Shown here piece by piece: positions 4,032 to 34,582 of a DNA stretch of 34,582 bases. Numbering within the stretch: position 1 is the stretch's first letter; each line of letters opens with the position of its first letter. Below the pieces are notes generated by a model. The model had not been told where the DNA came from, searched no databases, and was given only the letters and a program-made list of their open reading frames with translations. The position numbers and the translations under genes were made by a program. This DNA comes from a virus (lineage: Duplodnaviria > Heunggongvirae > Uroviricota > Caudoviricetes): IMG/VR virus record IMGVR_UViG_2623620495_000015; one strand, given 5' to 3'.

Positions 4032-4060
4032 TCTGTAAATATCACTGAGGTAATTTAATT

Positions 4061-4705
4061 ATGACGACTGAAAATAAAGTTAAACAATATACGAAAAACC
4101 AGGTGACCGAAGGTTACTGGGTGGATGCCCGTGGCGTAATGACACCTGAAAGTCTGATTAAGGATATTGACCGCGACCGCGAGCAGCTGGTCGGTGAGAT
4201 TGTCGAACTGGTGATTGCTGCCTCCGCCTCGCTGCGTGATTTGAAACTGCGCGCGTTTGGCGATATTCAGGCATTTATTGACCTGTCGGCGGAGAAATAC
4301 GGCGCTGTGAAAGGCGGCAAAAAAGGCAATATCACGCTTTACAGCTTTGACGGGCGTTACAAGATTCAGCGCGCCATGCAGGACCGTATCGCGCTTGATG
4401 AACGCATTCAGACCGCGAAGGCGCTGATTGATGACTGTCTGGCTGACTGGACGGAAGGTGCACGCCCTGAAATTAAAGCCATCATCAGCGAGGCATTCAG
4501 CACGGACAAGGAAGGCAACATTAACACCGGGCGCGTTCTGGCTCTGCGTCGTCTCGATATTACGGAGGAACGCTGGGATAACGCCATGAAACTGATTGGT
4601 GAAGCCGTCCAGGTGGTTGGCAGCAGAAGCTATATCCGCGTGTATGAGCGCGTCGGTGATTCTGCTGAATACCGCGCAATCCCGCTTGATATTGCAGGGG
4701 TTTAA
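4061..4705 (+). CDS. hypothetical early protein (214 aa), possibly DUF3164-like
   Basis: GAGG RBS; mixed-charge globular composition; resembles a family seen in Mu-like prophages (recalled, unverified). A full-length antisense ORF (4055..4708) is judged a shadow. Confidence 0.55.
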   Translation: MTTENKVKQYTKNQVTEGYWVDARGVMTPESLIKDIDRDREQLVGEIVELVIAASASLRDLKLRAFGDIQAFIDLSAEKYGAVKGGKKGNITLYSFDGRYKIQRAMQDRIALDERIQTAKALIDDCLADWTEGARPEIKAIISEAFSTDKEGNINTGRVLALRRLDITEERWDNAMKLIGEAVQVVGSRSYIRVYERVGDSAEYRAIPLDIAGV

Positions 4706-4706
4706 C

Positions 4707-4940
4707 ATGCATCAGGATATCAAAGAGTACAGAGCCAGAAATAGTTGCGCGGCGTATTCGCTGGGCGCGTCCAGAGCAGAACAACGCGGCGATTATGCCG
4801 AAGCTGAAAAACTGTGGCGTAAGGTAGCACAAAGCCCGTGTAGTACCCTGCGCCGCATCTGGGCGGAACACCGGGCAGAGTTCTGTGCCAATGCTCACCT
4901 GAAAGGATGGAAGCCGCCTCATGAACGCGAAGAACTTTAA
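4707..4940 (+). CDS. small ANR-like regulator candidate (77 aa)
   Basis: ATG 2 nt after the upstream stop; pattern AE..G.Y.EAE.LW...W.E.RAEFC resembles small prophage ANR-family proteins (memory only). Confidence 0.4.
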   Translation: MHQDIKEYRARNSCAAYSLGASRAEQRGDYAEAEKLWRKVAQSPCSTLRRIWAEHRAEFCANAHLKGWKPPHEREEL

Positions 4941-5112
4941 TCAGTTATATCCGCCAGGAACTCGCTTCATGCACATTGCACACCCGGCACTGCGTGGTGG
5001 TCGTGTGGTGAAAACCGTTGCGCCAGCCAGAGATTTTAAATGTGGTTGTGTGGTTGAAATTAATGTCGAGCCTTATTTCGTAAAAGTCGAAACACTGAAA
5101 GCACCGCATTAA
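4921..5112 (+). CDS. hypothetical small protein (63 aa)
   Basis: ATG overlapping the end of the previous gene; no recognisable motif. Confidence 0.3.
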   Translation: MNAKNFNQLYPPGTRFMHIAHPALRGGRVVKTVAPARDFKCGCVVEINVEPYFVKVETLKAPH

Positions 5113-5142
5113 TTTAATTTGCTTTTAATTGTTATTTAAACC

Positions 5143-5174
5143 AGGCGTAAACACGCCAGGGCTGGCTTACGCCT
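5143..5174 (+). promoter_or_regulatory. conserved stem-loop module A upstream of gene 5194
   Basis: AGGCGTAA (5143-5150) pairs with TTACGCCT (5167-5174); loop contains GCCAGGGCTGGC; paralogous copy at 5769-5798. Confidence 0.5.
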
Positions 5175-5193
5175 GAATCAAGAGGATTTATAT

Positions 5194-5739
5194 ATGAAAG
5201 ATAAAGTCTGGGATTTTATTGTTACTCCGAAAGGTTTTGCTACCCGTAAATCTGTAGAGTTGGCCAATGTTACGTTATGGGCATCATCATTGCTGGGACG
5301 TCTGGGAGGACCCGGTAGTTTTATGGATGCGGTACTTAATGCCCAGATTGCCGGGAATGCTCTGGCCAGTAACGGGGCTTATATTCAGGGGGACTTGTTC
5401 GCCATGATGGCAAATGACACGGTTGCACTGTACCTCGCGACACGGAACATACTGACAAGAATATCCATGCAGTCATGTAGCGAGGGTATGGAAGACCTCC
5501 GGGACATTCTTGAAGGTGATTTGCTCACTATTTCAGGTGTGCAGGAATCCCTCCCGCGTCAGTTGCGGTTTATTGACCTGATGGAGTCATATAAAGATAA
5601 ACCTGATTTTTTTCATATTCGATTCAGCGGGATGGAACTGCTGGATGAATATTATTCGCTGGATTCGATTTCCCGTGATGTGAAGGCGTTTGTTAAGTCA
5701 GTTGATCGCCATTACCGGAAAGCTGAACGCTGTAGTTAA
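5194..5739 (+). CDS. hypothetical protein (181 aa)
   Basis: ATG with AAGAGG RBS; preceded by stem-loop module A; no family recognised. Confidence 0.55.
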   Translation: MKDKVWDFIVTPKGFATRKSVELANVTLWASSLLGRLGGPGSFMDAVLNAQIAGNALASNGAYIQGDLFAMMANDTVALYLATRNILTRISMQSCSEGMEDLRDILEGDLLTISGVQESLPRQLRFIDLMESYKDKPDFFHIRFSGMELLDEYYSLDSISRDVKAFVKSVDRHYRKAERCS

Positions 5740-5768
5740 TAAGTCTGTTTTTAATTTTATTTGTATAT

Positions 5769-5798
5769 GACGTAAACCAGTCAGGGCTGGCTTACGTC
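5769..5798 (+). promoter_or_regulatory. conserved stem-loop module B upstream of gene 5818
   Basis: GACGTAA (5769-5775) pairs with TTACGTC (5792-5798); same loop core CAGGGCTGGC; differs from module A by a compensatory G-C to A-T stem change. Confidence 0.5.
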
Positions 5799-5817
5799 TG
5801 AATAAGAGAAATTCATT

Positions 5818-6534
5818 ATGGAAAATAAAAGTAAATACATTGCCAGAATTAAAAAACTGTTACGCCTTGCCAGAGGAACATCAAGCCCGGAAGAAGCCGC
5901 TAACGCTATTGCAAAAGCCCAGGCATATATGCGCCAGTATGGTATCAGCGAAAACGACGCGGAATTGTTCGATATTCAGGAGGCTGCCAGCGCGGGTGCC
6001 CCCAGTAATGCTGTGATTTCGCCGCGCTATATGCATGTTCTGTGTAGTCTGGTCCGCAATGCCTTCGGGGTTGAATGTTATATCTCCTTTAAATATCTGG
6101 AATCTGGTTCACGTAAATGCTACGTGAAATTTTATGGACCTGGCAGCCGCCCGGAAATCGCTGCCTACGCGTTTGATGTGCTTTCCCGTCAGATGATGGC
6201 AGAGCGCAGGAAATATCAGGATAAACACTGCAAACGTTGCAGCCCGTCCACGCGGGTGGCCCGTGGTGACCAGTTCTGCGAAGGCTGGGCCTTTGGTGCC
6301 CGTGACGTGATTACGGTGTATGACGTCTCCCCGGAAGAGAAAGGTCGTATTGAGCTTTACCGGCAGAGCCTGCACAGCTCTAAAGGGCTGCGCGAAGGGA
6401 ATATGCGCACAGCTAAAGCGTGTCGGGGTGCAGAGTTTGCCGCTACTGCGGGTTTTATCGCCGGGAAAAACGCCAGACTGCATCAGGGGGTTAATGGTCA
6501 GAGCAACAGACCGCTGGCACTGGGGAGGGGATAA
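5818..6534 (+). CDS. hypothetical protein with DUF2786-like N-terminus and Cys-containing C-terminal region (238 aa)
   Basis: N-terminus IARIKKLLRLARGTSSPEEAANAIAKAQAYMRQYGI resembles DUF2786 (memory); C-terminal part has HCKRC...C motif. Confidence 0.55.
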   Translation: MENKSKYIARIKKLLRLARGTSSPEEAANAIAKAQAYMRQYGISENDAELFDIQEAASAGAPSNAVISPRYMHVLCSLVRNAFGVECYISFKYLESGSRKCYVKFYGPGSRPEIAAYAFDVLSRQMMAERRKYQDKHCKRCSPSTRVARGDQFCEGWAFGARDVITVYDVSPEEKGRIELYRQSLHSSKGLREGNMRTAKACRGAEFAATAGFIAGKNARLHQGVNGQSNRPLALGRG

Positions 6535-10807: not shown

Positions 10808-11095
10808 ATGATGAGTTCTGACACCAATATCGACTACGCAGCACTCGGTGAATATACCGCATTTTCAGACAAGGCCCGGGATGCAGCCCGTCGCCGACAT
10901 GCTGAGATGTGTAATTTATCCAGTTATCTGGCGAGACAGGCCCAAAGCCCGGAGTCAGAAACGAATCATAATGAAGTGCTGTCAGCCGTAAACAGGATGC
11001 TGGACGCAGAACGGGAAATGCGTAATGCCGTGGAAAGAGCTAACCTGTTGGCGCGGGCATGTTATAAGCCACCATTAAAACTCGCTTCCCTTTAA
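10808..11095 (+). CDS. hypothetical protein (95 aa)
   Basis: Strong RBS AAGGAG 6 nt upstream of ATG; no recognisable domain. Confidence 0.4.
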   Translation: MMSSDTNIDYAALGEYTAFSDKARDAARRRHAEMCNLSSYLARQAQSPESETNHNEVLSAVNRMLDAEREMRNAVERANLLARACYKPPLKLASL

Positions 11096-11122
11096 CCCAT
11101 CCAGATAATCAACCTGCCGGGG

Positions 11123-12896: not shown

Positions 12897-13396
12897 TGGC
12901 GTGGTCACAGGATATCAGGGACAAAGTCCGTAACGGGTACATCTTTGACCAGCTTCCGCTGGATATCGTCGCCATGAAGTACGCCGTACCGCACGATACC
13001 GCGCGGCGCTGGAAAACGCAGGCAATGAAGAACGGCGACGACTGGGACAAGCTGCGGGCCGCGCACGCGCTCGCCGGTGACGGGCTGGAAAGTGTCGCCC
13101 GCACCGTGCTTATCAGTCTGGTGGTGAAGTGTCAGACGACGCTTGAGCGGCTGAACCAGAACCCGGACATCCCGCCGCAGGAGTCCGTCGAACTGCTGGC
13201 GAGTCTGTCTGACAGTCTCAGTAAGGCGGTGGCCAGCAGCAAAAAAATCCTGCCGGAAACCGACCGGCTCGCCACGGCACTGGAAGTGGTGCAGCGGCTC
13301 GGTGCGTTCATCAGGGAGCGTCACCCGGCACAGTATGCCGCGTTCCTTGAGGTGCTCGAAGGCTTCGCTAAAGAGCTTGAGGATAATTTCAGTTAA
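12896..13396 (+). CDS. terminase small subunit-like protein (Mu gp27 family)
   Basis: 166-aa ORF immediately upstream of the large terminase; N-terminal HTH-like region. Confidence 0.55.
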   Translation: MAWSQDIRDKVRNGYIFDQLPLDIVAMKYAVPHDTARRWKTQAMKNGDDWDKLRAAHALAGDGLESVARTVLISLVVKCQTTLERLNQNPDIPPQESVELLASLSDSLSKAVASSKKILPETDRLATALEVVQRLGAFIRERHPAQYAAFLEVLEGFAKELEDNFS

Positions 13397-13430
13397 CCAC
13401 AGCGGCCCGGTTTTCCGGGCCGTCTGATAT

Positions 13431-30555: not shown

Positions 30556-30906
30556 ATGGACCAGACGATTTCACCTGCAACCGGCGACTACGAACGCCGC
30601 CGGATTTATACACTCCATAACGCGGTTTATCTGCGACTGGCGACACCGCTTGGCAGTTACTGGGCGGATGCGTCGCTGGGGTCACGCCTGCACGAACTGA
30701 AGCGGAAAAAAGACGTTTCCCGTGTTCACAGGCTGGCGGCGCAGTATGCCAGCCAGGCACTTCAGCCCCTGCTTGATGACGGGCGGGCAAAATCCATTAC
30801 CGTTGACACGAAAGCGGGCCAGCGCGGCTGGCTGTTGCTGTTAATCACCGTCACGGATAACGCGGGCACACCGCAGACGTTTGAACACCCTGTGAGGATT
30901 ATGTAA
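30556..30906 (+). CDS. baseplate protein (Mu gp46-like)
   Basis: 116-aa ORF; position and recalled similarity to the GP46 family. Confidence 0.65.
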   Translation: MDQTISPATGDYERRRIYTLHNAVYLRLATPLGSYWADASLGSRLHELKRKKDVSRVHRLAAQYASQALQPLLDDGRAKSITVDTKAGQRGWLLLLITVTDNAGTPQTFEHPVRIM

Positions 30907-31985
30907 TGCCGTTTCCTGTTCCGGGCGTTGCTGAAAACACAGAACGCCAGCTACGTGATATCGCTAACGCCCTGCCGGGAGAAACCATAGATACCGGCGC
31001 TGACAGCGATTACCGCATTCGTGCCAATGCCGTATCCGGCGTGGCGGACGGACTGTATATGCATCAGGGATGGATCCTCCGTCAGGTGTTTCCTGACACG
31101 GCAGACCCTGAATATCTGGAGCTGCACTGTCGCACGCGCAATGTTTTTCGTAAAAAAGCAACAGCCTCATCCGGTCCGGTGGTGATTACCGGCACACCCG
31201 GTAAGACACTGCCAGCCGGTGCGGAAATTCGTGGTGAAGGTGTCAGCGTGGCCACCACAGCAGACTGCACCATCGGTGATGAAGGCAGCGCAGAGGTGAC
31301 GGTAAAAAGCACCGCCACGGGTGCACAGAAGAATGCATCCACGACGCAGACGGCAACGCTGGTCAGTCCGCCGGAAGGCATCAACAGCACGGTGACGATT
31401 AAATCCCTGACCGGCGGAACGGACAGGGAAAGCGACGCCGACCTGCTGGCGCGTTATCTGGATATTCTGCGCAGACCGCCCGCTGGCGGTAACAAATATG
31501 ATTACAAACGCTGGGCGCTGGAAGTGGATGGCGTTACGTCTGCGTATGTGGAGCCGTTGCGCCGTGGTCTGGGGACGGTTGATGTGGCCATTACGTCAGC
31601 CAATGACCTTCCCTCGCAGGAACTGATTAATGCCGTGCTGGCTCATATCGAGGAAGTCCGCCCGGTGACAGCGAAGGACACGATGGTGCTGGCCCCGACG
31701 AAAAAAGCCGTTGATTTCGTTGTCCGGGTAAAAACCAGTGGTCTGACCGTTGAGCAGATAAAACCACAGATAACTGACGTTATCACGGATTTTATGAACC
31801 GACTGGAGCCGGGGCAGGAATTAATTATTTCACAACTGGAAACCCAGATTTCATTAATTTCCGGTGTCAGTGACCGGCGAATCATTACGCCAGCAGACAA
31901 CGTAAAAGCCATTATTAACGCGTCAACGTGGGAATGGTTGCGCCCGGGAAATATTGATATTCAGCCTTTTCCACGTGAGGGGTGA
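30906..31985 (+). CDS. baseplate J-like protein (Mu gp47-like)
   Basis: 359-aa ORF; TAATG overlap with gp46. Confidence 0.75.
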   Translation: MPFPVPGVAENTERQLRDIANALPGETIDTGADSDYRIRANAVSGVADGLYMHQGWILRQVFPDTADPEYLELHCRTRNVFRKKATASSGPVVITGTPGKTLPAGAEIRGEGVSVATTADCTIGDEGSAEVTVKSTATGAQKNASTTQTATLVSPPEGINSTVTIKSLTGGTDRESDADLLARYLDILRRPPAGGNKYDYKRWALEVDGVTSAYVEPLRRGLGTVDVAITSANDLPSQELINAVLAHIEEVRPVTAKDTMVLAPTKKAVDFVVRVKTSGLTVEQIKPQITDVITDFMNRLEPGQELIISQLETQISLISGVSDRRIITPADNVKAIINASTWEWLRPGNIDIQPFPREG

Positions 31986-31989
31986 TTTT

Positions 31990-32562
31990 ATGAATATGGT
32001 CGATTTATTTCGCGCCATGCTGCCACCTGTCAGTTATGACCTGAACGGGAAATATATTTCCGCAGAACTGACCGCCGAGGCTGACGTCATGGAGGCCGTG
32101 AAGGCGTCAGCGGCGCGCGTTCTGGCACAAATCACCCCGTTACAGGCATCGATGACGCTGTCCGACTGGGAGCGCGTGTACGGTGTTGTCCCCCGTGAAG
32201 GGGCAACACAACAGGAGCGGCGGCAGAACATTCTGGTAAAAATGGCAGCTACGGGCGGGCTGTCAATCCCTTACTTTAAGAGCCTTGCCGCCAGTCTGGG
32301 CTATACCATCACCATTACGGAGCCGCGACCGTTCCGGGTGGGGATAAACCGCTGCGGCGACCGTCTGCTGATACCGGAAATCCGCTGGGCGTGGCAGGTC
32401 AACGTTATCGGGACAAAAACACCTGTCTACCGTTTCAGAACGGGCGCATCGGCAACCGGCGAACCGCTGACGGCCTTTGGTGAATCCATTTTAGAAAACA
32501 CGTTTAAAGACCTTAAACCGGCTTTTACAGACTGTTATTTCACGTATGAGGTGGAGGAATAA
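31990..32562 (+). CDS. tail protein (Mu gp48-like)
   Basis: ATG 31990 (track ORF begins at 31954 inside gp47); about 190 aa. Confidence 0.65.
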   Translation: MNMVDLFRAMLPPVSYDLNGKYISAELTAEADVMEAVKASAARVLAQITPLQASMTLSDWERVYGVVPREGATQQERRQNILVKMAATGGLSIPYFKSLAASLGYTITITEPRPFRVGINRCGDRLLIPEIRWAWQVNVIGTKTPVYRFRTGASATGEPLTAFGESILENTFKDLKPAFTDCYFTYEVEE

Positions 32563-33365
32563 TGCGGAATTTAATGCCCCCGGTGAATACGCCGGATAAG
32601 TTATTTCATGACGGTGACCCGACTCAGGGAATTGAGGGAACCATCGTTACTGCTGAATTTATGAATAATCATCAGGCAGCGACGCGTGATTTGCAGCAGG
32701 AGGTGATTAACGTTCTTAAGGAGGCTGGCGTCACCCCGGACCCGGAAAAACAAAACCAGCTGGTTGAGGCGCTGACCTCGTTTATTGGCCAGAAAGTCCC
32801 GGATGCATCGCTGACGCAAAAAGGCGTGGTACAGCTTAACAGCGCTGTTAACAGTGAATCAGAAACAGAAGCTGCCACACCAAAAGCGGTCAAGATTGCG
32901 ATGGATAACGCAAACGCCAGGCTCGCAAAAGACCGTAACGGCGCAGACATCCCGAATAAACAATTGTTTCTGGATAACATCGGCGGTGCGCCGAAAACGC
33001 GCAAAATTAACAATATGCCCCTGACGTCGGATATCACCATCAACAACATCGGCGGCAATGCCGGAACGGCAACCCGGCTTCAGACGGCCCGCAGGATTAA
33101 CAATGTGCTGTTTGATGGCTCCAGAGATATCACCATCAGCAGCACCGATTCTGGTGCAGTACGTGATTTCAGATACACCAGCGAAGTGTTTCACAATCCC
33201 GGTGGTAACCAAATTTCCTGGGTATTCCGCGCGCCTTCAGGGTGTATTTTGTCAGGTATTAACGTTCAGGAAACTGGCAAAAGCTCTGCGGATAACATCG
33301 GGGGTGTGTATTACAAACAAACTCAGATTTATATCAATGGCGGATGGCGCACGGTATCCGGCTAA
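32562..33365 (+). CDS. tail fibre protein (Mu S/gp49 position), short form
   Basis: 267 aa; KGVVQLNSAVNSESETEAATPKAVKIAMDNAN matches the conserved motif of lambda Stf / P2 H-type fibres (memory). Confidence 0.7.
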   Translation: MRNLMPPVNTPDKLFHDGDPTQGIEGTIVTAEFMNNHQAATRDLQQEVINVLKEAGVTPDPEKQNQLVEALTSFIGQKVPDASLTQKGVVQLNSAVNSESETEAATPKAVKIAMDNANARLAKDRNGADIPNKQLFLDNIGGAPKTRKINNMPLTSDITINNIGGNAGTATRLQTARRINNVLFDGSRDITISSTDSGAVRDFRYTSEVFHNPGGNQISWVFRAPSGCILSGINVQETGKSSADNIGGVYYKQTQIYINGGWRTVSG

Positions 33366-33379
33366 TTAAGGAGAAAATA

Positions 33380-33904
33380 ATGGAACTCAGAAACGTCACG
33401 CGTTATTACCCGGAAGAAATGCCTTATGGTGAAAACATTCAGTATTTCCGTAGTGAAGACGGACAGGATTTTTATGAATCACTGGATAAATTCACGAAGA
33501 AATACAAATTGTGCATTCACCCGGAAACCGGCGTGATTTATTCAATGGCAGAAGACGTGTCCCGTCTTTATCCTGTTGGTTTTACCATTGTGGAAGTGGA
33601 TGAGCTGCCGGAGGGTTTTGGCATCGAAGCCAGCTGGTATTACCGGGATGGCGAAGTACTGCCAGTTCCTGTTGATTATTCGAAACTGGCAGAAAAGCAA
33701 CGTCAGCGCCTGCTGAATGAAGCAAAGGAAATCACCTCCGACTGGAAAACCGAGCTGGAGCTGGGCACCCTCAGCGATGATGACAAAGCCCGTCTTACGC
33801 AATGGATGGCATATATCAAAGCGGTAAAGGCGCTGGATTTAAGTCAGGTCAGTGATGAATCCTCCTTTTATTTAATTCAGTGGCCGGAAAAACCGGGCGT
33901 GTAA
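33380..33904 (+). CDS. tail fibre assembly protein (Tfa; Mu U/gp50-like)
   Basis: ATG 11 nt after AAGGAG; about 174 aa; typical Tfa size and position. Confidence 0.7.
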   Translation: MELRNVTRYYPEEMPYGENIQYFRSEDGQDFYESLDKFTKKYKLCIHPETGVIYSMAEDVSRLYPVGFTIVEVDELPEGFGIEASWYYRDGEVLPVPVDYSKLAEKQRQRLLNEAKEITSDWKTELELGTLSDDDKARLTQWMAYIKAVKALDLSQVSDESSFYLIQWPEKPGV

Positions 33905-33911
33905 AAACAAT

Positions 33912-33937
33912 AACGGTCGCTGTCTGGCGACCGTTTT
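33912..33937 (+). terminator. intrinsic terminator after the tail fibre assembly gene
   Basis: AACGGTCGC (33912-33920), loop TGTCTG, GCGACCGTT (33927-33935), then T-rich tail. Confidence 0.5.
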
Positions 33938-33952
33938 CAGTTCAGAGGCTTT

Positions 33953-34582
33953 ATGTCTGTATTAATTTCAGGTGCGCTGATTAATGGCGCTGGTGTTCCG
34001 ATGGCGGAATGCAAAATTTATTTAGATGCACTGGTTAATACCAGTGAAGTGGTCACTGAATCATTTGCGGTTATTGAAACCGATGCGGCGGGACAGTATG
34101 CCTTTAAAGCACAAAAAGGCAAATACACCGTACACATCAAGCAAAAGAACGGCCCCAAGTGCTGCGTGGGTGACATTTCGGTTTACGACGACTCAAAGCC
34201 CGGCACGCTGAACGACTTTCTGACTGCCCTTGATGAAAGCGATTTAAAGCCGGATGTAGTGAAACGCTTTGAGGAACTGGCGCAACAGGCACAGCAGAGC
34301 GCGGAAGCCGCCGCTGGCAGCGAACAACAGGCAGGACAACACGCCACTGATGCACAGCAGATTAAGGCCGACTGTCAGGCGCTGGCGAAAGACGTACAGC
34401 AGAACGCCGACGCGGTTGCGGAGGGTAAACAACAGGCCGAAAATCTGGTCTCACAGGTTGAGAATGCCGCCGAGGAGGTAAAAAAGGACGCTGAAGCTGC
34501 TAAACAGGCCGCATCTGATGCAGAGCATGTCAGGGAGGATATTGATACTGCGTTATCTGCGACACTGAAAACGGCGAATCGT
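33953..34582 (+). CDS. side tail fibre protein, N-terminal part (lambda Stf-like), truncated by window end
   Basis: Translated manually: 210 codons with no stop to the window edge (absent from the track because no stop is in-window); N-terminus MSVLISGALINGAGVPMAECKIY... and ISVYDDSKPGTLNDFL match the lambda Stf N-terminal domain; Ala/Gln-rich coiled region follows. Confidence 0.65.
   Translation, partial: MSVLISGALINGAGVPMAECKIYLDALVNTSEVVTESFAVIETDAAGQYAFKAQKGKYTVHIKQKNGPKCCVGDISVYDDSKPGTLNDFLTALDESDLKPDVVKRFEELAQQAQQSAEAAAGSEQQAGQHATDAQQIKADCQALAKDVQQNADAVAEGKQQAENLVSQVENAAEEVKKDAEAAKQAASDAEHVREDIDTALSATLKTANR

Follow-up and report, generated by a model that had tools for sequence, protein, structure and literature searches.

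Two tail-fibre and chaperone cassettes probably occupy the place of Mu's invertible fibre segment in a Mu-like Escherichia coli prophage

Where phage Mu has one tail-fibre gene with an invertible variable half, the Mu-like prophage described here carries two fibre genes, which raises the question of whether these are pieces of a single split S gene or two independent fibres, and, if they are independent, where on the virion the second would be attached. We address this question in a stretch of 34,582 nt (IMG/VR record IMGVR_UViG_2623620495_000015), referred to below in its entirety as the window. The window represents a Mu-like phage, encoding MuA, a MuB-like ATPase, Mor, the Mu portal, F, I, T, gp36, gp37, the sheath and gp44 to gp48. 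Its tail is contractile, with the sheath protein (PF04984) and the Mu gp44-48 baseplate genes encoded in the window, and no homologues of J, V or M of the lambda-type non-contractile tail were found in the window's phage. We conclude that the region very probably forms the right end of the tail operon in a transposable Mu-like E. coli prophage that lacks gin and in which two complete fibre and chaperone cassettes stand where Mu has its single fibre gene (Table 1). The layout is largely ordinary, being already present in annotated phage genomes such as phiP27.

Table 1. Features at the right-hand end of the window, with the evidence for each
Feature	Position	Strand	Evidence
Baseplate wedge protein, Mu gp47 homologue	30906..31985	+	PF04865 Baseplate_J, E 2e-68
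Baseplate wedge protein, Mu gp48 homologue	31990..32562	+	PF10076 Phage_Mu_Gp48, E 2e-30; 28% identity to Mu gp48
Fibre 1, 267-aa Mu-S-type wedge fibre (S267)	32562..33365	+	Mu S homology, PF03406
Chaperone 1, tail fibre assembly protein, 174 aa, Mu U / lambda Tfa type	33380..33904	+	PF02413, E 5e-22
Intergenic hairpin, 10-bp stem, 4-nt loop	33912..33935	+	dG -16 kcal/mol, z -2.5
Ribosome-binding site of fibre 2, AGAGG	33944..33948	+	Read from sequence; 5 nt before ATG 33953
Fibre 2 N-terminal collar/anchor domain, aa 1-95, lambda Stf-N fold	33953..34237	+	PF08400, Foldseek
Fibre 2 linker and A/Q/E-rich coiled coil, aa 96-210	34238..34582	+	Helix predicted at aa 100-134; cut at window/contig end

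The first fibre gene lies directly behind the gp48 wedge gene, its ATG overlapping the stop codon of the latter, and is followed by a U/Tfa-type chaperone gene. A first-pass annotation of the window had remarked that the gene in the S position encodes only 267 aa and nevertheless carries the conserved Stf/H-type motif, and both observations hold: Mu S has 504 aa, and S267 contains the 'phage tail fibre repeat' PF03406 at aa 83-123 (E 4e-21). The repeat is preceded by an N-terminal anchor (aa 1-78) and followed by a short shaft and a variable tip (aa 186-267), in which the sequence variation of the protein is concentrated; the shaft repeats take the form xINNxxFDGSxDITI. Residues 4-141 align with Mu S 12-171 at 41% identity (E 5e-32), identity to the constant part of Mu S reaching ~85% over Mu S 109-171, and S267 also matches PDB entries 5yvq, 8ju3 and 9ki1. 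The tip and the C-terminus of the phiTE short tail fibre are homologous (PDB 9cuy, E 4e-14), and the tip also weakly resembles the Mu S C-terminus. An AlphaFold2 monomer of S267 is unusable (pLDDT 55, pTM 0.27), as expected for a trimeric fibre. Mu gp48 carries the loop where the S fibre docks, as seen by cryo-EM (PMC11915804), and by homology to Mu six S267 trimers would dock on the gp48 wedge loop, the ~80-aa tip presumably binding a surface receptor, probably LPS as for Mu. Likeness to Mu S/U (gp49/gp50) thus extends to the S267 N-terminus, the position behind gp48 and the U-type chaperone, whereas S267 is half the length of Mu S.

This short length, although it had been singled out as unusual, is a common design. 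The S267-type tip (~125 aa) recurs behind three or more unrelated N-terminal anchors in fibres of 245-331 aa, which occur in E. coli, Shigella and Salmonella and fill 2244 database clusters. We rejected the idea that S267 is a truncated remnant because its length is conserved, its dN/dS lies at 0.15-0.18 and homologues built in this way are plentiful. Indeed, all three genes (fibre 1, Tfa and fibre 2) are under purifying selection, with dN/dS of 0.10-0.20, the values being 0.10-0.12 for Tfa and 0.11-0.20 for the anchor and proximal coil of fibre 2. The Tfa protein matches Mu U (PDB 5yvq_B, E 2e-15). Its true start, at 33380, lies behind an AAGGAG site and is the one annotated in relatives; the start at 33344 given by a mechanical open reading frame list is not the one in use.

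Between Tfa and the second fibre gene lies a hairpin that the first-pass annotation had taken for a terminator. The hairpin itself is present and, apart from a single G-C to G-U change, is conserved in the Mu-like relatives from E. coli. Its standing as a terminator is poorer: the plus strand holds just UUUUCAGUU 3' of the stem, and a consensus terminator scan scored it on the minus strand only, so that it would be at best a leaky terminator; it is probably either that or an mRNA-stabilising stem. The hairpin is absent from phages phiP27 and Rac-SA53, in which only a 23-nt spacer separates Tfa from the fibre gene behind it. No sigma-70 promoter was found for fibre 2 in a scan whose scope does not extend to Mu C-dependent late promoters. 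The two cassettes share a strand and follow the baseplate genes; they would probably be co-transcribed, with the hairpin lowering read-through into the second.

The second fibre gene (fibre 2) opens with an ATG at 33953 and stays open for 210 codons up to the window end, bearing out the earlier description of a fibre gene on the same strand that runs off the window. The end of an NCBI contig from E. coli (LCVH01000230.1) is 100% identical to the window and stops at the same base, so the truncation of the gene is an assembly break, which explains why such fibre genes stand nearly always as 'partial' in draft assemblies. Used as a homologue query, the 210-aa fragment matches almost exclusively partial proteins. 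Among species-representative genomes, no exact match to the last 33 nt of the window was found, and scans of metagenomes and IMG/VR for the window end returned eight loci, of which a single one (L102) is near-identical. L102 is 99.3% identical over the last 404 nt of the window and lengthens the fibre 2 gene by just 611 nt, and this extension is collinear with the 474-aa fibre found in E. coli C5.

The block common to Mu S ends at S267 residue 141, equivalent to Mu S residue 171 and exactly at the Mu G-segment boundary. This coincidence, together with the missing downstream sequence of the window itself, could be accommodated by one S gene split as in the Mu G segment, in which the reading frame at 33953 would be the alternative variable part and an invertase and inverted S'/U' genes would lie just beyond the window. 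We regard this as scarcely credible. S267 is served by its own chaperone and closes with a tip that is complete and conserved. The reading frame at 33953 comes with a ribosome-binding site, an ATG and a full N-terminal anchor of its own; these features, along with the intact gene in relatives, mark it as a separate fibre gene. Furthermore, the window holds neither an invertase nor an inverted S'/U' pair, the absence of the latter having been noted before, and no gix-like site within 3 mismatches; a vestigial gix site was also looked for at the Sc/Sv junction and not found, and long inverted repeats are absent from the window and from three relatives. In four relatives with different insertion sites, fibre 2 is followed by a DUF4376 gene and then by the transposon end, without an invertase or inverted fibre genes before the element right end. 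The canonical G segment for which a downstream search had been suggested thus appears in no relative. Overall, two independent fibre genes are supported, as the first-pass annotation had suspected, and the place of Mu's invertible segment, S'/U', gin, com and mom is probably taken here by a second fibre cassette.

The relatives also indicate what follows the break. They are 95.6-100% identical to the window at the nucleotide level through the shared tail region, with one of them (L003) diverging only past ~34200. Fibre 2 is intact in relatives, with lengths of 474, 567, 684, 759 and more than 998 aa, and is followed by a gene for a DUF4376 (PF14301) chaperone, not by a PF02413 Tfa gene, in all of them. 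The element right end, ...AGCCCAGAAAAAAACGCGAAGTTACA, lies 85-95 nt past the last fibre-module gene and is seen at three different chromosomal sites. The window contains the first three genes of the series fibre, Tfa, Stf-N fibre, DUF4376, and the fourth is seen in relatives at 95.6% nucleotide identity. DUF4376 proteins are fibre chaperones by experiment (PMC7289586, PMC7882524). For the window's own phage, we deduce from these relatives the presence of a DUF4376 gene, the fibre 2 length and the lack of an invertase: judged from the nearest of them, the full fibre 2 is probably ~474 aa long, and the continuation of L102 in line with the C5 fibre implies a DUF4376 gene downstream, which would sit just beyond the window, ~90 nt before the transposon right end. 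[quoted passage not shown]

At its N-terminus, fibre 2 matches the whole PF08400 profile (1-134/134, E 8e-48). The first-pass annotation had described this domain as closely resembling lambda Stf; the homology is clear, but the closeness is not, as the two share 39% identity over lambda Stf residues 1-123. The Ur-lambda Stf collar domain (9e7m) is matched by phmmer with E 2e-16, and an AlphaFold2 model of the fibre 2 anchor, with block-mean pLDDT of 69-92 over aa 1-95, matches 9e7m_Ta in Foldseek (TM 0.94, rmsd 1.1 A, 42% identity). The neck protein gp40 of XM1 is also matched (phmmer E 4e-6; Foldseek of the model against 7kjk_A3, E 4e-7), and it and Ur-lambda Stf-N are the two best structural matches of the modelled anchor. 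In fibre 2, as in Ur-lambda Stf, the collar fold leads into a linker and a coiled coil; the whole fibre would be built from a lambda-Stf-type collar domain, a coiled coil and an exchangeable distal receptor-binding part.

A recombination breakpoint lies within fibre 2 near 34200-34436. L003 is 100% identical to the window up to ~34200, beyond which identity falls to 35-61%, and its distal fibre is 92.6% identical at the nucleotide level to tail3 of Rac-SA53. Changes in host range would come from recombination with other prophages that exchanges the distal part of fibre 2 and, at a slower pace, the fibre 1 tip, and not from Gin inversion. The proposal that the fibre module was acquired from a lambdoid phage oversimplifies its origin: the anchor belongs to a separate Stf-N class (class B), 41-46% identical to lambda's, which always lies between a fibre-Tfa pair and a DUF4376 gene and occurs mainly in temperate myoviruses (phiP27, Rac-SA53). 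A myovirus-exclusive clade of anchors was considered and rejected, the same class serving as a second Stf in lambdoid siphovirus contigs L030, L059 and L072, with 72-75% (L030) and 87-91% (L059) identity to the phiP27 type.

The same four-gene order is found in phiP27, Rac-SA53 and pPE4, and in 35 of the 80 surveyed IMG/VR loci with baseplate-J/gp48 genes upstream. In phiP27 (L54-L57) and Rac-SA53 (tail1-tail4), the gp47/gp48-type wedge genes are likewise followed by a fibre, a PF02413 Tfa, a PF08400 fibre, DUF4376 and the prophage end, the DUF4376 proteins having 187-188 aa and their genes being 77-78% identical at the nucleotide level. L56 of phiP27 is 70% identical to fibre 2 over the 210-aa window fragment, the first 135 aa of fibre 2 fall in the 60-80% identity band for Rac-SA53, and over the 95-aa collar domain fibre 2 is 64% identical to its counterpart in each of the two phages. 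These phages differ in being integrase-type temperate myoviruses rather than transposable Mu-like phages, and their first fibres are longer (332-460 aa) with a different N-terminal anchor. Our literature searches brought up no work on the function of this second fibre, whether in phiP27, in Rac-SA53 or in Mu-like prophages.

Is fibre 2, then, a working part of a contractile virion? In Ur-lambda, twelve Stf-N domains form a 12-mer collar on the gpV/gpM junction of the bare tail tube (PMC12617516), whereas here the virion is contractile and the gpV/gpM docking site is not exposed, and the chaperone is of the DUF4376 type in relatives instead of PF02413. As the lambda anchor needs that tube junction, fibre 2 could be cargo or a decaying remnant left by recombination with a resident lambdoid prophage and not be assembled onto the Mu-like virion, whose contractile tail offers the collar no bare tube. 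Prophage fibre regions do recombine freely, the relative JNE21-009 lacks the second cassette, and among the PF08400 phage records 295 of 299 are less than 60% identical to the window's, those listed being almost all lambdoid siphoviruses. We nonetheless consider this improbable: the anchor and proximal coil are under purifying selection, intact reading frames with a cognate chaperone lie inside the element ends at three or more independent insertion sites, and the cassette is kept in three unrelated myovirus lineages as well as in the surveyed IMG/VR loci. Moreover, the anchor is of its own class, distinct from lambda's, and a homologous anchor serves on the neck of a myovirus, XM1. The virion would be expected to carry both fibres.

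As to the site, XM1 offers the nearest precedent. Its gp40, a collar spike of this Vibrio myophage, binds the neck proteins gp4 and gp5 and consists of an Ig-like N-domain, a 100-aa coiled coil and a receptor-binding domain, and XM1 gp1 is a homologue of Mu gp36 (PMC10457771). Fibre 2 has the same build, the Ig-like N-domain and the coiled coil of gp40 each covering ~100 aa before the C-terminal receptor-binding domain. Since the sheath covers the tube in the present phage, the neck (gp36/gp37) is the most likely site for fibre 2, as for gp40, and by this analogy we tentatively place it there, with slightly less than even confidence. The neck reading draws on one distant homologue, the sole solved one from a myovirus: the gp40 N-terminus scores E 6e-4 and 20.3 bits against PF08400, below the gathering threshold of 26.6, and its gene does not adjoin baseplate genes, whereas the fibre 2 gene adjoins these and not the neck genes. 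Furthermore, as the same anchor class occurs in lambdoid siphovirus contigs, fibre 2 may dock off the neck, or at different sites in different phages.

The gene's position directly behind the baseplate and fibre genes would instead fit a virion in which both fibres are functional and fibre 2 sits at the baseplate end, on the wedge, the sheath-baseplate rim, fibre 1 or a retained Tfa, in a long and short fibre arrangement like that of T4. The anchor class is always found behind a fibre-Tfa pair, and it occurs also on siphovirus-type contigs, where its place would be close to the tail tip. A fibre of ~474 aa would not be long enough to span the distance from the neck to the cell if the tail measures ~100 nm, a tail length that we estimated ourselves. 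Two receptor-binding fibres on one contractile virion are known from T4 (long and short fibres) and from myophage phiTE (STF/LTF), with both phiTE fibre types on the wedges. In T4 and phiTE, however, both fibres dock on elaborate wedges with dedicated sites, whereas the baseplate here is of the minimal Mu type with no gene beyond those of Mu for a second docking site, the sole gp48 docking loop is presumably occupied by S267, and in the two solved cases an anchor of this fold encircles a tube-like structure or a neck and not a wedge. Attachment at the baseplate end is therefore possible but somewhat doubtful in our judgement.

Returning to the neck placement, we further propose, and hold more loosely than that placement, that a class-B Stf-N fibre with its DUF4376 chaperone may form a portable second-fibre cassette for contractile and non-contractile tails alike, its collar ringing the neck as in XM1 gp40. 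If so, the Mu-like phage would rely for its host range chiefly on neck fibres that can be exchanged and not on Gin inversion, and there would be either a docking surface common to both tail types or a loosely specific 'ring on a rod' attachment.

For annotation, the analysis clarifies that in this E. coli lineage the Mu-like prophages lack a G segment and carry two fibre-chaperone pairs, the second being the fast-swapping one, which is relevant to host-range prediction and to the engineering of Mu-like or tailocin-like particles. Additionally, the Stf-N collar, solved in 2025 as a ring on the bare lambda tube, is also maintained by selection in phages with contractile tails, in which the site is not exposed. 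Finding its position on these phages would show how a single anchor module is put to use on different tail types, and whether the module could serve to add fibres to engineered myovirus particles.

The 34.6 kb window is, by gene content, a transposable prophage of the Mu-like type, coding for a MuA-type transposase, a MuB-like AAA protein, Mor and a GH108 endolysin; the Mu portal, F, I protease and T capsid; the gp36 and gp37 neck proteins, sheath, tape measure and DNA-circularisation protein; and the baseplate proteins gp44-48. The last 34.6 kb of Escherichia coli contig LCVH01000230.1 (GCA_001637635.1) are 100% identical to it, and neither end of the element lies within the window itself. 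The second fibre gene had been noted to run off the window; since the source contig ends at the same base (34582), this is an assembly break. It falls inside fibre 2, where relatives start diverging, and nearly all of the 120 database homologues listed are annotated ‘partial’; evidently, short-read assemblies generally break at fibre genes of this type. In the early region, a 217-aa minus-strand ORF almost exactly opposite the DUF3164 gene is probably fortuitous, lying antisense in a GC-skewed gene. GC drops to 0.441 at 5001-6000 (semi-essential region) from 0.54 for the whole window, and a 181-aa ORF there, without a Pfam match, may be acquired cargo.

Features of the fibre module and early region in the window, and of comparison loci
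Feature	Location	Details
MuA-type transposase	237-2279	
Minus-strand ORF	4055-4708 (-)	217 aa
DUF3164 gene	4061-4705 (+)	
181-aa ORF	5194-5739	
Fibre 1 (S267)	32562-33365	267 aa; ATG overlaps stop of gp48 homologue
Chaperone 1 (Tfa)	33380-33904	PF02413 assembly protein, Mu U homologue; start chosen from AAGGAG site and annotation of relatives
Hairpin	33912-33935	10 bp; dG -16 kcal/mol, z -2.5
Fibre 2	from 33953	AGAGG upstream
E. coli C5 (L001)		95.6% nt identity over 8.2 kb; fibre 2 474 aa; DUF4376 188 aa; then IS21-type insertion sequence
STEC308 (L002)	right end 13390-13404	fibre 2 567 aa; DUF4376; then host yjiK
M8 (L011)	right end 11099-11113	fibre 2 684 aa; DUF4376, DUF1353; then host fadR
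08-00022 (L012)	right end 10995-11009	fibre 2 759 aa; DUF4376
Metagenome contig L003		99.4% identical; fibre 2 at least 998 aa; next gene beyond contig
Lambdoid contig L030	910-8765	J (1132 aa), lom, Stf (776 aa), Tfa, second class-B Stf-N fibre
Lambdoid contig L059	2331-9988	order as L030, degraded; DUF4376 present

All elements listed in the first-pass annotation proved real. Fibre 1, roughly half the length of Mu S (504 aa), carries the Stf/H-type motif ascribed to it (PF03406 at aa 83-123). Its residues 4-141 are 41% identical to Mu S 12-171 (E 5e-32), rising to ~85% over residues 79-141 (Mu S 109-171), and the conserved block ends at the exact start of the Mu G segment (S residue 170). 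Judged by homology, fibre 1 carries the Mu S anchor, which in Mu docks on gp48 loop 133-155 to give six trimers (PMC11915804), and chaperone 1 is of the U type. The shortness of fibre 1, earlier regarded as unusual, is a common design: a database search with the short fibre returned 2244 clusters, and its ~125-aa tip (…WRTVSG) aligns in fibres of 245-331 aa that combine it with three or more unrelated N-terminal anchors, ruling out a remnant. [quoted passage not shown] Variation clusters here (aa 186-267), with 72-76% identity to C5 and to 08-00022 at 33156-33305 against 91-98% in the flanks, and the tip forms a second hotspot of exchange or diversification in the module, on a smaller scale. 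Of the proposed Tfa gene and terminator, the former stands (PF02413); the hairpin exists, but because only UUUUCAGUU follows on the plus strand it would be a leaky terminator at best. It is kept in E. coli Mu-like relatives and absent from the integrase-type myoviruses phiP27 and Rac-SA53.

The second fibre lies on the same strand, and its lambda-Stf-like N-terminus was confirmed: residues 1-134 cover the PF08400 profile in full (E 8e-48), with 39% identity to lambda Stf 1-123. An AlphaFold2 model (block-mean pLDDT 69-92 over aa 1-95) shows six strands and one helix, as described for lambda, and matches 9e7m_Ta in Foldseek (TM 0.94, rmsd 1.1 Å); by homology and model, fibre 2 has the Stf-N fold. 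IMG/VR contig L102 matches the final 404 nt of the window at 99.3% identity and then runs on colinear with the C5 fibre (93% aa identity), so the window’s fibre 2 is, by extrapolation, most likely ~474 aa long. The predicted layout is most likely a collar (1-95), a coiled coil to ~residue 225 and a ~250-aa domain, which in C5-type fibres has no Pfam or PDB sequence match.

Because the window’s own contig stops, the downstream layout was read from relatives; in the four that reach far enough (C5, STEC308, M8 and 08-00022), a DUF4376 gene follows fibre 2. PF08400 matches every relative’s fibre 2 and PF14301 every downstream protein; published experiments have established DUF4376 proteins as fibre chaperones (PMC7289586, PMC7882524). 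At three different insertion sites the last module gene is followed after 85-95 nt by ...AGCCCAGAAAAAAACGCGAAGTTACA, beyond which the flanks diverge, placing the second cassette inside the transposable element; a 20-nt inverted repeat lies just inside this end (TTTTGCGCTCAATTCTGGGC / GCCCAGAATTAAGCGCAAAA in M8). In Mu, this position is held by the G segment, gin, com and mom. A canonical G segment downstream, the alternative raised earlier, appears in none of the relatives: no invertase follows the fibre module in any of them, long inverted repeats are absent from the window and three relatives, and the window has no gix-like site within 3 mismatches. In M8 (L011 8049-11023), fibre 2 has four collagen triple-helix repeat stretches and a Gp53-like C-domain, and the DUF1353 gene right after its DUF4376 gene belongs to phrog_1158, ‘tail assembly chaperone’. 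In E. coli JNE21-009 (L010 8487-9542), a 351-aa protein replaces the second cassette, with no Pfam or PDB match and phrog_8291 (unknown function) as its sole match; gp48 is a pseudogene there, and the inverted tail cluster of another prophage adjoins.

Against C5, 08-00022 and M8, dN/dS is 0.15-0.18 for S267, 0.10-0.12 for Tfa and 0.11-0.20 for the first 160 codons of fibre 2 (0.02-0.08 for gp47 and gp48), so all three module genes are under purifying selection. The tail genes have a GC content of 0.567; this drops to 0.50 in S267 and to 0.467 in Tfa and the collar. Up to ~34200 L003 matches the window at 100% identity, and past that point at 35-61%, so that otherwise identical phages differ solely in distal fibre 2, which appears to be the fast-changing host-range determinant; in L003 this part is 92.6% identical (nt) to Rac-SA53 tail3. 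The earlier proposal of two host-range determinants and a mosaic module is supported.

The suggested acquisition from a lambdoid phage oversimplifies the origin of the fibre 2 anchor. Pairwise comparison separates two anchor classes: class A (lambda Stf) lies directly after lom, is paired with a PF02413 Tfa and is 41-42% identical to the window’s anchor, whereas class B (the window’s) follows a fibre-Tfa pair, is paired with DUF4376 and is 88-91% identical within the Mu-like group and 57-65% between this and the phiP27/Rac-SA53 groups. The window’s N-domain has 60-80% identity to only 4 of 299 phage records with this domain, of the phiP27/Rac-SA53/pPE4 kind; the remaining 295 fall under 60%, and those listed were almost all lambdoid siphoviruses. 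Among the best 80 IMG/VR loci, 35 have baseplate-J/gp48 upstream (anchors 60-96% identical), 22 have lambda J/Lom (42-64%) and 23 were left untyped. Rather than a recent loan from lambda, the Stf-like anchor is of a distinct class, one travelling with DUF4376 among temperate phages. In phiP27 the order is L52 (baseplate J), L53 (gp48-like), L54 (fibre), L55 (Tfa), L56, L57 (DUF4376), attR, with L56 a PF08400 fibre 70% identical to fibre 2 over the 210-aa fragment; Rac-SA53 and ‘Actinobacillus’ phage pPE4 share this order. Lambdoid contigs, too, carry class B as a second Stf, and two of these siphovirus contigs (L030, L059) have two Stf-N fibres in tandem. Occurring in both myovirus and lambdoid contexts, the class-B fibre and DUF4376 would behave as a portable second-fibre cassette. 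All parts belong to populated Pfam and PHROG families, and GenBank has contained the four-gene layout since phiP27; we found no functional study of it in the literature. Several partial Stf-N fibre proteins (E. coli, Salmonella) are named ‘shikimate transporter’ and one ‘M14 carboxypeptidase’ in NCBI/nr (P0014, P0034, P0047, P0049, P0052, P0057, P0059); these look like propagated annotation errors. The tail-fibre region of ‘Actinobacillus phage vB_Apl-pPE4’ (L014, PP818812.1) is 81-93% identical (nt) to E. coli prophages of the Rac-SA53 type; a phage said to infect Actinobacillus pleuropneumoniae would not be expected to show this, and its host assignment may be wrong.

We infer that the late tail transcript carries both cassettes, the hairpin lowering read-through, that the virion would bear both fibres, and that host range would shift through recombinational exchange rather than Gin inversion. 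The Ur-lambda collar consists of twelve Stf-N domains that encircle the bare tube at the gpV/gpM junction and bear four trimeric fibres (PMC12617516); in a contractile tail the sheath covers this junction. The collar spike gp40 of Vibrio myophage XM1 ranks second among the sequence and fold matches of the fibre 2 anchor; it combines an Ig-like N-domain with a coiled coil of 100 residues and a receptor-binding domain, and binds neck proteins gp4 and gp5 (PMC10457771). XM1 gp1 is a Mu gp36 homologue. Together, the gp40 match and its neck binding tentatively suggest the neck as the most likely site for fibre 2, although the gp40 domain falls under the Pfam gathering threshold, the fibre 2 gene adjoins baseplate genes and the class B anchor is found on siphovirus-type contigs too.
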